64,000 nt of DNA from positions 64,001-128,000 of the forward strand of contig CAVSMN010000009.1 in NCBI GenBank assembly GCA_963729045.1, given 5' to 3'. This stretch comes from an uncultured Nitrososphaeraceae archaeon. GTDB lineage: Archaea > Thermoproteota > Nitrososphaeria > Nitrososphaerales > Nitrososphaeraceae. Within the stretch, counting starts at the first letter, position 1. Each line of letters starts with the position of its first letter. Positions 30,001-33,000 of the stretch are shown here, in pieces. The position numbers were made by a program.

Positions 30001-33000
30001 ATTATTAGATTTTGAAGTGTCATCATCTAGAGATAGAACGTGATCATCAGCTACTATTAATTTCTCTTTTTTATTAATGATAATAGGAAAATATTGAACT
30101 TCTAAAGACATATCTATACAGTGAAATAAAATACCAAATATTAAAACTGATCTCTATAAAATATTACAAAGTAATAAAAAAATACTAGCTAACTTAGTGG
30201 TTTCAATTCCTCCGTAAAAGTATTGTAAATAGACAATGCTTCTTCTTCGCTTTTCGCTCCCACAATCGTGGCGGCTCCACTCGTAAGGAAGCTAATAAGT
30301 AGTTGATTTTGAAAGGACACTGTTATACCCAAATTGCCTTTTGATTTCAATATATACCCATTAGATTCGGCGATTTTCAAAATGTTTGTTAAATCAACCT
30401 CGTTTGTAATTTGGGCGGGGGTAACAGTGTATGTTCTCTTGCCTCGATCTCTTCCGCATAATTCTTCTACCATAATAGACGGAATTTTGATATCTTTTTG
30501 TTCAACATGCAATCCGCAAGAGGGACATTCATCATGTCTATTCATTTGAATTTTATCAAAAACTAAATCATTTAGATCGACGTATAATAATTTATTGACT
30601 AATGATGGCTGCTGTCCAATTGCGATTTTTACTGCTTCAGATACCTGAATTCCAGAGACAAGATAAAGAATTGATGGATGTACTCCCTCAGTGCTACATG
30701 TTGGCATTTCATCCTCAGACAATTCAGGAAAGATGCATCTAAGACAAGCACTCTGATTTGGGAGAATAGTACAGACTGAACCAACCATTCCAAGAGCTCC
30801 AGCATAAATAAAAGGTATGCCTAGTCTTAAGCAAGCATCGTTTAGAGCATATCTAGCATCGATACTATCCAAAGCATCAATAACTATATCATATCCTTTA
30901 ATTATTTTTTCAGCGGTAAATTTAGTAACAGAAATGGGAATAGCTTCTATTTTAACACTAGGATTCATTTTCTGTAAACGTTCCAAGGCAGCTTCAACTT
31001 TTACCTTTCCTATATCTGCATCAGTGTACAAATGTTGTCTGTGAAGATTAGAGATCTCTATTACATCTCTGTCAACTATTCGAATCTCTCCTATTCCCAT
31101 TCCAACTAATTGAGCTAAAACCGGGTTTCCTATTCCTCCTGCACCGACAACACATATTTTTGTATCTTTGAGTTTTTCCATCCCGACATAACCAATTTCC
31201 TCGAGCATAATTTGCCTCGAATATCTTAGCATATCTTGATTAGTTATTTCAGCTCCACCGGCAACTGCAGGCAAAATATAAATAGAATCACCTTCTTTCA
31301 AAACTGAACCCATCCCTGCATTGTTAAAACGCATATTTTTTCCATTAATATAAATATTAATTAATGCTCTAGGCTTTCCATTAATGTCTATAACTCTACG
31401 TTTAAAATCATCACCCATAATACCGGATACAATGTTGAATGCTTCATCCAAAGTTGAAGCATCAATAGACATTTTTTTTTCTCCTGCACCTTTGTTTAAA
31501 ACTGATGGAACAACAAATTCTATTGTGGTCAATTTATAATTAACACCGTAATTTTTCGATTTATATCCGTTTGTTCAACGTATCATTGCAGAAACTAGCC
31601 TGATATCAGGTTTTACTGAACTAGGAGTAGGAAGAAGATCAGTAATAGATTCAGTAGTTTTAAGTCCGTTACCAGTAACATAACATACTATATTTTCGTC
31701 TTTATCGATTTTATTTTCCTCTATTAGTTTCTTTAAAACACCTACTGCCACACCACCAGCAGGTTCGGTGAATATTCCTTCGGATTTTGCAAGCAATAAA
31801 ATGGCATTTTTAATTTCAGAATCAGTAACTTTTTCCCCTATTCCATTATATTGTCTTAGACGTTTTAGTACATATAATCCGTCACCAGGATCCCCTATTG
31901 CCAAGCTTTTTGCAATAGTATTAGGTTTTTCTACGGGTATAACTTCATTAGATCTATTCTTATAAGCATCAACAATAGGTGCACATCCATTAGGTTGGGC
32001 AGCAATTATCCTTAAATTAGAAATATCAGAAATTAATCCTAGATTCATTATTTCTTCAAATCCTTTACAAATGGCATTCAACATAGCTCCACTTCCTACT
32101 GGAATTACTAGTACATCAGGGACGGTCCAATTCAATTGTTCCAATACTTCAAACGCTAGTGTTTTAGAGCCTTCGACGTAGTAAGGTCGCATATTTATAT
32201 TTACAATTCCATAACCATTAGAATCTCCAATTACTGAAGCAATCCTATTAGCATCATCATAGGTACCATCTACCGCTACAAATTTGCCTCCGTATGACAA
32301 AGCTTGTGCGATTTTAACATCTTCTATGTCAGAGGGGGCGAAAATGTAACAAGGTAAATTTGCCTTTGCTGCATGAGCGGCGGTAGCAGATGCGAGATTT
32401 CCAGTAGATGCACAACCCACGGCAGATAAATTCATCTCTTTAGCTTTTGATACTGCAACCCCTGCTGGCCTATCCTTAAAAGAGAAAGTTGGATTTACAG
32501 AATCGTTTTTAATGTATAAATTCTTAAATCCGCCAAGACTATTACCCAAATTATCTGCTTTTTGTAACGGAGTGATCGCACCATTTAAACTGACTATATT
32601 TTTCTTATCTTCTATCGGAAGAATTTCAAAATATCGCCAATAAGTTAAATCTGAACGACTTTCAAATGTATTCTTAGTAATGGTAGTATCTATTTTATAT
32701 TGGACATCCAATGGCCCAAAGCAATCCTCACAGATATATATAAACCTTGGGGAATACTCTTTATTGCATTCTCTGCATTTTAGTGCACTTATAATTCCCA
32801 TTATTTCTGAATACAAAAGAACAATATGATAGATAAATCTCTCTAAATAATATTTAGTATTACTTAACTATTAGGAATCAATCAGCCTAATTCATTATGA
32901 AAACACGAACGATTTCCTGTATGACAGGCAGGTTTCATAGAATTAACCAGATATAATAATGCATCAGAATCACAATCAACTAATATTTTTTCTACTGGTT

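Follow-up and report, generated by a model that had tools for sequence, protein, structure and literature searches.

Two adjoining genes in this Nitrososphaeraceae genome, one for a pyridoxal-phosphate (PLP) enzyme annotated as threonine synthase and one that fuses a ThiS-type sulfur carrier to an E1 activating enzyme, probably form a homocysteine synthase operon resembling Streptomyces MetM/MetO, which would provide the methionine step of ammonia-oxidising archaea (AOA). We put the probability of this sequence-based reading at roughly 0.8; it is built on gene anatomy, orthology, a residue pattern and distribution. The operon is most likely a variant of the pathway shown in Streptomyces in 2024, with the carrier fused to its activating enzyme. 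AOA are abundant prototrophs, and neither the MetB/MetY family (PF01053) nor Asd-sulfurtransferase (PF01837) was detected in any of 61 genomes from amoA-bearing families. The initial annotation had proposed a MetM-type O-phosphohomoserine sulfhydrylase and a MetO-like carrier released by cleavage after its Gly-Gly. This joint claim gains support from actinobacterial loci in which a SAM riboswitch, metM and metO follow each other, from diagnostic residues and trees, from sister genomes whose carriers are split, and from linkage to thrB, to hom and to genes of sulfate assimilation.

Layout of the locus

Both open reading frames were recovered where the initial annotation had placed them, on the minus strand of the window (the whole 64-kb stretch of DNA that was analysed) and 42 bp apart (Table 1). 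In 29 relatives, the spacing between enzyme and carrier genes ranges from -4 to +9 bp. In three of four studies, contigs from RNA libraries run across the two genes and the spacer between them, a weak hint of one transcript, as such contigs cannot prove that a transcript is single. A scan for promoters and terminators stayed at chance level (15 found, 16.4 expected). Lys109 of the enzyme, which we take to be the PLP Schiff-base lysine, is invariant across all groups compared. The linker between carrier and E1 mostly measures 9-15 residues in relatives, and in one of them consists of 47 residues of Asn and Ser. Motifs of the E1 domain include RYSRQ, GxGGxG, SNLHRQ, the loop cysteine of PTC (C279) and two CxxC pairs.

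Table 1. Features of the locus and candidate sulfur-supply genes (coordinates in the 64-kb window)
Feature	Position	Strand	Remarks
Putative MetM-type PLP enzyme gene	31575..32801	-	ATG start, 408 aa; Pfam PALP E 3e-71; fold type II, threonine-synthase-like, N-terminal Cys-pair zinc-ribbon-like motif; predicted O-phosphohomoserine:carrier-thiocarboxylate homocysteine synthase
Lys109 codon (SFKDR motif) of PLP enzyme	32475..32477	-	aligned with SFKDR lysine of solved threonine synthases
Intergenic spacer	31533..31574	-	42 bp
ThiS-E1 fusion gene	30189..31532	-	TTG start, 447 aa; Pfam ThiS 54-93, ThiF 104-337
MetO-like beta-grasp sulfur-carrier domain	31254..31532	-	residues 1-93; Pfam ThiS
PAVAGG, end of carrier domain	31254..31271	-	residues 88-93 of fusion; predicted JAB cleavage site and thiocarboxylate position
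Linker, PAVAGG to E1 motif RYSRQ	31227..31253	-	9 residues
E1 (ThiF/MoeB) adenylation domain	30513..31226	-	about residues 103-340; Pfam ThiF E 1.5e-75
C-terminal TBP-like domain	30189..30497	-	about residues 346-447; ELCGR (C359) conserved
NirA/sulfite-reductase-family gene	13352..15196	-	NirA family match, below cut-off; unlinked to operon; candidate sulfide source for carrier
Double rhodanese, directly after sulfite-reductase-like gene	12468..13364	-	PF00581 matches at contig 76528-77232; candidate persulfide donor

Affiliation of the PLP enzyme

Identity of the enzyme to its homologues at all 80 retained actinobacterial metM-like loci is 44.4-48.1%, compared with 36.5% for Streptomyces ThrC and 27% for the second ThrC of its own genome. 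Downstream of 79 of these 80 homologues comes a carrier gene whose product ends in PAVAGG, either exactly or with a short tail added, and a SAM riboswitch lies upstream of all 16 that were tested (metM-metO layout) and also in Nonomuraea. No SAM riboswitch was detected at the 11 archaeal loci scanned.

Thirty-two alignment columns are invariant within the enzyme clade (13 AOA and 12 actinobacterial sequences) and absent from 10 ThrC sequences, against three columns of the converse kind; this diagnostic pattern was derived in the present analysis and not taken from the literature. The canonical motifs of solved threonine synthases, STGNT, VNSxNPxR, GQKT and GN, are not found in the enzyme, and in 54 of 54 clade members they read STGNL, VNxNxRxYY, GSKT and SG; the genome's second ThrC retains STGNT, VNSxNPxR and GQKT. 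Archaeal and actinobacterial enzymes form one clade with support of 100/100, and an AU test rejects a grouping of the archaeal enzymes with ThrC (p 8.5e-6). Phylogenies comprised a tree of 115 rows, left after removal of five partial rows, and a careful tree of 52 of those rows; one locus with an internal stop and no open reading frame (L050) was excluded from the relatives. A doubtful further possibility is that this clade dates far back in Thermoproteota and that its bacterial members branched off from within archaeal lineages (support 88/75).

The protein passes the curated cut-off of the NCBIfam thrC model TIGR00260 (294.6 bits against 167.1), a result that does not discriminate because a Streptomyces MetM-like protein passes as well. 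The structural model (pLDDT 93) has threonine synthases as its nearest folds, and its PDB matches were confined to threonine synthases and other fold-type-II enzymes, with no MetM structure among them. The characterised S. albulus MetM (A0A059WBP2) is represented in all comparisons by Streptomyces orthologues as proxies, which sit in one 1810-member cluster (A0A059WBP2 is not among the 15 members listed). A Microcystis homologue that shares 51.6% identity with MetM has been reported to act in vitro as a threonine synthase and as a deaminase; according to its authors it does not fully act as MetM, threonine induces thrC(metM) and metO together, and methionine reverts the induction of thrC (PMC12172450).

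The carrier-E1 fusion

The N-terminal domain has the fold and the GG of a MetO-type carrier, with the GG internal in the fusion. PAVAGG, which had been called invariant, occurs together with ELCGR in each of the 33 distinct fused loci retrieved, and P88, G92 and G93 are invariant in 40 of 40 carriers in a full-length alignment with actinobacterial and free archaeal carriers. From split relatives and the presence of JAB proteases we infer cleavage of the carrier after GG: two close relatives (G257 and G295) have split carriers with tails beyond GG, which supports proteolytic release. Carriers of family f55 end exactly in GG, and JAB was not found in five of seven f55 genomes. In two further genomes (G309 and G348), an independent Ubl-MoeZ fusion directly follows a JAB gene.

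Adenylation motifs, Zn cysteines and the loop cysteine of the E1 are intact (MoeB/ThiF type), and the fusion scores below the cut-offs of the NCBIfam MoeB, ThiF and UbaA models. PRK12475 covers fusion residues 103-437, the MoeZ model only 6-271 of 392. As the fusion has no match to the rhodanese domain PF00581, the label MoeZ given to it earlier has to be dropped in favour of a MoeB-like E1 with a C-terminal domain whose name, TBP-like, comes from PMC2948915. Nor is the system self-contained, as had been suggested, since an E1 without rhodanese needs an external sulfur donor. The fusion is the only E1 match in its own genome and mostly the sole E1 in AOA genomes, and is therefore probably not dedicated to methionine; a second ThiS-domain protein is also present in most AOA genomes, and the E1 probably serves other ThiS/MoaD carriers of the genome too. 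A single-sequence fold of the fusion (pLDDT 36) was set aside.

Genomic distribution and other pathway genes

The main sample comprised 61 genomes from four amoA-bearing families, with amoA found in 60; family numbers (f1, f2, f45, f50, f55) are our own and differ from those of the initial annotation. Fifty-seven of the 61 genomes have the enzyme. By hand tally, it adjoins a carrier/E1 gene in 54 of these 57 (52 fused, 2 split), which reproduces, with different counts, the earlier pattern of a fusion directly after the enzyme. Among the four genomes in which the enzyme was not found, one (G027) has its operon interrupted by a contig break, enzyme and fusion are non-adjacent in three of eight f50 genomes, and at loci L059-L061 no carrier lies directly downstream. 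The fusion directly follows thrB in two genomes (G287, G303). In G260 the operon comes after genes for cysteine synthase, cysH, sat and sulfite reductase, a sulfate-assimilation cluster; homoserine dehydrogenase follows it in G100, and its neighbourhood in G312 includes sufS and a SepCysS gene. No JAB gene linked to the operon was found in AOA.

The genome under study is 87% complete. Its three partial PF01053 matches (E 7e-7 to 4e-4) were read from their sequences as aspartate-aminotransferase-like, DegT-like and BioF-like proteins and rejected, in keeping with the earlier claim that it has no Cys/Met PLP enzyme; no PF01837, MetX or MetA match was found either. A second ThrC, homoserine kinase and two JAB genes, all attributed to it before, are present, one JAB gene with a 1-base frameshift in the assembly and intact in two genomes of the same genus. 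It also has MoaE and, in its molybdenum-cofactor (Moco) cluster, a separate MoaD-like gene. Across the 61 genomes, we found a separate ThrC in 59, JAB protease genes in all, a cysteine-synthase-like gene in 57, and MoaE in 20 (0/22 in f2 and 0/10 in f50, most of which retain the operon). MetH, ascribed to AOA as a whole, holds for f1 and f2 only (PF02574); one tested genome each of f45 and f50 has a MetE-type domain.

The proposed complementarity between the enzyme and PF01053 is weaker than apparent, because many PF01053 genes of enzyme-less families adjoin CBS/CysK-like genes and may, to judge by these neighbours, be catabolic. A Fisher test of enzyme against PF01053 (table 3/76/29/13) gives p 1e-14, a value that is overstated because kin are not independent and that we do not rely on. 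Enzyme homologues also occur in non-AOA archaea. The enzyme is found together with PF01837 in five non-AOA genomes and with PF01053 in three genomes, so the routes are not exclusive.

Discussion

If the MetM/MetO reading is correct, carrier and E1 would be made as a single chain. As long as the GG is internal, it offers no carboxylate for adenylation, so a JAB/Mec-type metalloprotease encoded elsewhere would have to cut after Gly93 to leave a free C-terminal GG. The released E1 would then adenylate this GG; adenylation of GG by E1 is the chemistry of the family. Conversion of the adenylate to a thiocarboxylate would draw on sulfide supplied by sulfite reductase or on a persulfide that a stand-alone rhodanese provides. 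In a step modelled on MetM and Mycobacterium CysM/CysO, the PLP enzyme would eliminate phosphate from O-phosphohomoserine made by ThrB, and the thiocarboxylate sulfur would be added at the gamma carbon to give homocysteine and, perhaps following another JAB cut, regenerate the carrier. Homocysteine would be methylated by split MetH (f1, f2) or a MetE-type enzyme (f45, f50), with threonine supplied by the separate ThrC.

A wider joint reading, which we consider doubtful, casts the AOA polyprotein as a hub of protein-bound sulfur. The JAB cut would yield, at 1:1, MetO and the sole E1 of the cell, and this E1 would charge MetO and other ThiS/MoaD proteins without a rhodanese, possibly via the ELCGR cysteine of its TBP-like tail; the AOA cysteine synthase may be supplied by it as well. 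A single proteolytic step would then underlie methionine supply, tRNA thiolation and Moco synthesis alike.

It is improbable that the enzyme is instead a second, divergent threonine synthase or deaminase, and that the adjoining Ubl-E1 belongs to a general archaeal SAMP/UbaA system (tRNA thiolation, protein tagging) and is its neighbour through inheritance alone. The thrC cut-off, the nearest solved folds and the Microcystis activity agree with this alternative, as does the finding that most AOA genomes have the fusion as their sole E1, alongside a second ThiS-domain protein. However, the Streptomyces MetM-like protein passes the same cut-off, a separate ThrC with canonical motifs accompanies the enzyme, diagnostic columns stand at 32 to 3, the linkage between enzyme and carrier is kept from actinobacteria to archaea, and prototrophic AOA would be left without a homocysteine route. 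A thiocarboxylate-dependent enzyme with another product, whether it forms cysteine from O-phosphoserine in the manner of CysM/CysO or some different sulfur amino acid, seems very improbable to us. Fold and clade are those of ThrC/MetM and not of CysM, orthologues are under SAM riboswitch control, the operon is linked to thrB and hom, and nearly all genomes have a separate cysteine-synthase-like gene, in G260 even within the sulfate-assimilation cluster. That the operon ends this very cluster, lies near sufS and SepCysS in G312, and has homologues of its enzyme in five non-AOA genomes already equipped with the PF01837 route would suit another product.

We also regard it as very unlikely that homocysteine is made while the fused domain stays uncut, in a structural or regulatory role, with free sulfide or a different ThiS protein serving the enzyme. 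Some ThiF proteins carry N-terminal Ubl domains for which a role distinct from that of free ThiS has been suggested (PMC1779556), AOA lack an operon-linked JAB gene, and of the two JAB genes in this assembly one has a frameshift. Against this, PAVAGG is invariant in the fusions while the linker is variable, close relatives encode this domain as a separate gene, every genome of the sample has JAB, and the Ubl-MoeZ fusion of G309 and G348 directly follows a JAB gene. A MoaD-MoeB for Moco synthesis, as the fusion is grouped in PMC11237513, is hardly credible: family annotation and the MoaE of the own genome favour it, but the distribution of MoaE, which was not found in f2 or f50, contradicts Moco synthesis as the main role, and the genome's Moco cluster has its separate MoaD-like gene. 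The E1 half may serve this MoaD-like protein.

The abstract by Hasebe and colleagues of 2024 reportedly mentions archaea already. GapMind 2026 includes the MetM/MetO pathway and records growth of N. maritimus in defined medium (PMC13759103). With the fusion also in print (2010, 2024), the novelty claimed initially was overstated; no AOA methionine assignment was found among open-access papers and preprints, and no per-genome methionine assignment in the GapMind 2026 supplements. As the chemistry itself is known, the surprise is moderate. The MetM reading would close the AOA homocysteine gap, left by the absence of both PF01053 and PF01837 (0/61 each), with a specific two-gene hypothesis, correct a widespread misannotation as threonine synthase, and assign a role to a fusion that was noticed in 2010 and classed with molybdopterin in 2024. 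The analysis also yields sequence motifs by which MetM can be told from ThrC.

Comparison with known systems

With canonical ThrC (PDB 2zsj, 1uim, 2d1f; hom-thrC-thrB type), the enzyme would share fold, PLP lysine and substrate. It differs in that the STGNT threonine, VNS..R arginine, GQKT glutamine and GN asparagine are all replaced, and it falls in a separate clade, with the true ThrC elsewhere in the genome. The CysM/CysO/MoeZR/Mec cysteine pathway of Mycobacterium tuberculosis employs an O-phospho amino acid substrate, a protein thiocarboxylate donor and a JAB protease, all three of which are predicted here too, whereas its cysteine-synthase fold, cysteine product and free carrier are different. 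One genome (G309) has a separate CysM-JAB-(Ubl-MoeZ) cluster of this kind. In Wolinella succinogenes, HcyS/HcyF/HcyD/MetY produce homocysteine via a protein thiocarboxylate, with a JAB-trimmed carrier and an E1 using sulfide from sulfite reductase. The same thiocarboxylate route, JAB trimming and sulfide supply to E1 are predicted for AOA, but Wolinella uses O-acetylhomoserine and a fold-type-I MetY (PF01053), a family not found in the 61 AOA-family genomes.

A thaumarchaeal Ubl-E1-TBP or MoaD-MoeB fusion of the same architecture has been described, in 61 of 98 Thaumarchaeota assemblies (PMC2948915; PMC11237513). In their passages on the fusion, the 2010 paper reports no new strong neighbourhood links (PMC2948915), the 2024 paper files it under molybdopterin (PMC11237513), and neither gives it a methionine role. 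As outlined in PMC13759103 and PMC12172450, the MetM/MetO/MoeZ/Mec pathway of Streptomyces albulus (Hasebe et al., 2024) likewise has a ThrC-like PLP enzyme, then a ThiS-fold carrier that ends in PAVAGG and needs C-terminal trimming; the archaeal enzyme has about 45% identity to Streptomyces orthologues, shares their diagnostic residues and belongs to the same clade. By these accounts, the archaeal system differs in that the carrier is fused to the N-terminus of an E1, which is encoded in the operon, is mostly the genome's only one, and has a TBP-like tail instead of a rhodanese. Its loci, as scanned, are without a SAM riboswitch, and the tail to be removed from the carrier would be a whole enzyme in archaea, compared with one Cys in S. 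albulus.

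Results

The genome (2.85 Mb, 87% complete, with archaeal amoA) carries the PLP enzyme labelled threonine synthase 42 bp from a carrier-E1 fusion. In 3 of 4 studies this spacer is spanned by RNA-library contigs, which hints weakly at co-transcription. The enzyme shares 95% identity with a protein named from Ca. Nitrosocosmicus hydrocola. In the fusion, PAVAGG (residues 88-93) is followed by a 9-residue linker and an intact E1 core, and the C-terminal domain holds ELCGR. The initial annotation had named this E1 MoeZ, a label that does not hold: neither Pfam nor a genome-wide PF00581 search places a rhodanese in the fusion, and the MoeZ model aligns over positions 6-271 of 392 only. 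No other E1 was found in this genome. RNA-library contigs also cover two low-complexity ORFs 3' of the operon, the longer of which has no Pfam match. Two tandem methyltransferase-like ORFs elsewhere in the window reflect recent duplication, gene conversion or an assembly artefact.

Features of the window and of the compared genomes (G000, this genome; L, loci of other genomes)
Feature	Location	Strand	Description
PLP enzyme	window 31575-32801	minus	408 aa, Pfam PALP
Carrier-E1 fusion	window 30189-31532	minus	447 aa; Pfam ThiS 54-93, ThiF 104-337
Two low-complexity ORFs	window 29325-29870, 29860-30111	minus	Asp/Glu-rich tandem repeats, Thr/Ser/Lys-rich repeats
Methyltransferase-like ORFs	window 25422-27058	plus	two in tandem, long identical stretches in common
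NirA/sulfite-reductase-family gene overlapping double-rhodanese gene	window 12468-15196	minus	candidate sulfur source for carrier
Repeat ORF	window 7953-8570	minus	~14 tandem copies of 8-residue Ala/Glu/Lys/Gln unit, coiled-coil-like
Split MetH	G000:C12:397346-400955		325 aa (homocysteine-binding) + 867 aa
Mec-like JAB	G000:C11:122229-122652		apparent single frameshift (one base)
MoaD	G000:C13:24671-24907		apparent single frameshift
Thioredoxin reductase	G000:C12:290851-291855		apparent single frameshift
ThiS protein	G000:C15:35185-35439		84 aa, ending VHGG, directly 3' of rpS17e
L151 carrier-E1	G278:C20 2007-3470		linker a 47-residue Asn/Ser low-complexity stretch
L166	G312:C109 1806-10568		MetM-like gene and carrier near E1, sufS, FdhD-like gene; divergent from SepCysS gene
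L167 Ubl-MoeZ	G309:C128 3496-6291		carrier-E1-rhodanese, directly 3' of JAB gene
L168 Ubl-MoeZ	G348:C1 4944-8063		carrier-E1-rhodanese, directly 3' of JAB gene

The genome also encodes a second threonine synthase (ThrC), two IlvA, TrpB, one cysteine-synthase-like gene and, elsewhere, several rhodanese genes. The homoserine kinase and two JAB genes claimed for it were both found, one JAB with a frameshift, and the claimed lack of a Cys/Met PLP enzyme stands, with no true PF01053 member detected; PF01837 gave no match here, nor did MetX or MetA in five genomes including this one. As the PF02574 ORF is likewise about 320-345 aa in nearly all genomes of families f1 and f2, the split of MetH is not an assembly error. 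The frameshifts in the JAB, MoaD and thioredoxin reductase genes are likely assembly indel errors, probably so for JAB since G318 and G343, which belong to the same genus, carry it intact. In most genomes of ammonia-oxidising archaea (AOA) the fusion is the only E1, and AOA nearly always encode a second ThiS-domain protein, so the E1 is probably shared; the rpS17e-linked ThiS protein is its likely second client here. In f2 the counterpart of this domain is part of a 260-aa ORF that corresponds to the Cgi121-Ubl fusion reported in 2010.

The distribution searches covered one set of 121 genomes of the order, taken one family at a time. amoA marks four of the families, where it is present in 60 of the 61 genomes, this one included. 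Enzyme, carrier/E1 and cysteine-synthase-like gene each occur in 57 of the 61, JAB in all, MoaE in 20, and PF01053 and PF01837 in none. As initially annotated, a separate ThrC is kept in the genome (59 of 61), and the carrier-E1 follows with an invariant PAVAGG: the two adjoin in 54 of 57 genomes (hand tally), and the motif is kept in 33/33 fused loci with linkers of 9-47 residues. In G027, one of the four enzyme-negative genomes, a contig break runs across the operon. The fusion lies after thrB in G287 and G303, and in G260 the operon is the last part of a cluster of cysteine synthase, cysH, sat and sulfite reductase genes.

Across all 121 genomes, 76 have the enzyme only, 29 PF01053 only, 3 both and 13 neither, and 7 of these 13 have PF01837. 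Enzyme and PF01837 occur together in 5 genomes, which counts against a clean either/or reading. So does the position of many PF01053 genes, which adjoin CBS/CysK-like genes and may therefore be catabolic. G312, which holds L166, is a non-AOA member of the order, also with PF01837. A phylum sample has enzyme homologues (47-59% identity) in other families; the 19 loci read mostly show a free carrier ending GG or GGG, several with E1 next, while a directly downstream carrier is absent from three, and in one a homoserine dehydrogenase gene follows.

MetM is described as homologous to ThrC and frequently misannotated, with metO downstream, a SAM riboswitch upstream, and with Mec and MoeZ (available text of GapMind 2026, PMC13759103, and of PMC12172450). 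A protein search of named records yielded a Nonomuraea locus with this metM-metO layout: SAM riboswitch, enzyme (45.9% identical to ours) and a 91-aa carrier with a PAVAGG end. Seeded with this locus, a further search found 584 loci, of which 80 actinobacterial ones were retained (44.4-48.1% identity to the window enzyme); these proteins serve as proxies for S. albulus MetM itself. The expected carrier accompanies 79 of the 80, many Streptomyces carriers ending GGC, and the riboswitch is present in all 16 loci scanned. Identity of the window enzyme is 45.2% with a Streptomyces MetM-like protein, against 36.5% with Streptomyces ThrC (hom-thrC-thrB) and 27.2% with the second ThrC of its own genome.

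Discussion

Sequence and phylogeny set the enzyme apart from the ThrC clade. Relative to solved threonine synthases and Streptomyces ThrC, STGNT has become STGNL, NFDD TYDD, VNSVNPxRxEGQKT VNINMRPYYVEGSKT, PVGNAGN PVGSGAM and TAIRIG KSLAIG; the replaced Thr, Ser and Arg are presumably substrate-phosphate ligands in Thermus ThrC. L136, Y181, R205, Y208, S212, S237, S299, A301 and G349 recur without exception in the MetM-like proteins of actinobacteria and in 29 further archaeal homologues, and the second ThrC of AOA retains the threonine, arginine and glutamine typical of ThrC. Comparing 13 AOA and 12 actinobacterial proteins with 10 ThrC proteins gives 32 columns that never vary in the first two groups and whose residue the ThrC set lacks, against 3 for the converse. 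Proteins from archaea and actinobacteria group together as a single clade (SH-aLRT 97 in a 115-row tree, 100/100 in a 52-row tree), with no firm branching order inside it, and the AU test rejects a tree that constrains the archaeal enzymes to ThrC (p 8.5e-6). The predicted model (pLDDT 93) has a threonine synthase fold, which would be expected under either reading. The main contrary result is the threonine synthase activity reported for a Microcystis homologue; in the same organism, co-induction of thrC with metO, reversal of the thrC induction by methionine and a second thrC fit a methionine role (PMC12172450, available text). We regard reannotation from threonine synthase to MetM as well supported.

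The most likely route, to which we assign a probability of roughly 0.8, would begin with a JAB protease cutting the fusion after Gly93. The E1 would then adenylate the carrier GG, a thiocarboxylate would form from sulfide or rhodanese persulfide, the PLP enzyme would perform gamma-replacement on O-phosphohomoserine to give homocysteine, and the split MetH or a MetE-type enzyme would finish methionine.

Several loci bear on the cleavage step, as does the constancy of PAVAGG across linkers of differing length. One genus of family f50 shows both states: G278 and G269 have a fused carrier, G257 and G295 a separate one that retains 8- and 15-residue tails after GG; the sisters being split at that point suggests recent fission or re-fusion at the L151 linker. 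Carriers of family f55 stop exactly at GG, and the search for JAB was negative in 5 of 7 f55 genomes. Independent Ubl-MoeZ fusions occur in non-AOA relatives (L167 and L168), and JAB and E1 matches adjoin in the other f48 genomes too. G309 has a cysteine synthase upstream and G348 a PF01053 enzyme downstream, clusters that we take to be CysM/CysO-like (Mycobacterium pathway) and Wolinella-like (Hcy pathway), respectively. A linear MoaD-MoaE fusion cut by JAMM is cited in the available text of PMC11237513.

The Thaumarchaeota fusion was noted before, as Ubl-E1-TBP (PMC2948915) and, in 61 of 98 assemblies, under the name MoaD-MoeB (PMC11237513), with no methionine link in the available text of either. 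The accessible part of PMC1779556 describes operons of carrier, JAB and E1 that include cysteine synthase or O-acetylhomoserine sulfhydrylase, and there makes no threonine synthase link. GapMind 2026 (PMC13759103), in its available text, covers MetM/MetO/Mec/MoeZ. N. maritimus is one of its 208 prototrophs and 40% identity suffices for a candidate; the web tool therefore probably already calls the gene metM. Searches of open-access papers and preprints yielded no paper assigning the MetM/MetO route to AOA. According to its abstract, Hasebe 2024 reportedly finds the pathway distributed in other bacteria and archaea as well. Related thiocarboxylate pathways are Mycobacterium CysM/CysO and Wolinella Hcy. 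A MetM/MetO-type system that needs proteolytic release is almost certainly present in AOA, and it differs from the Streptomyces type in that the carrier is fused to an E1 that has no rhodanese.
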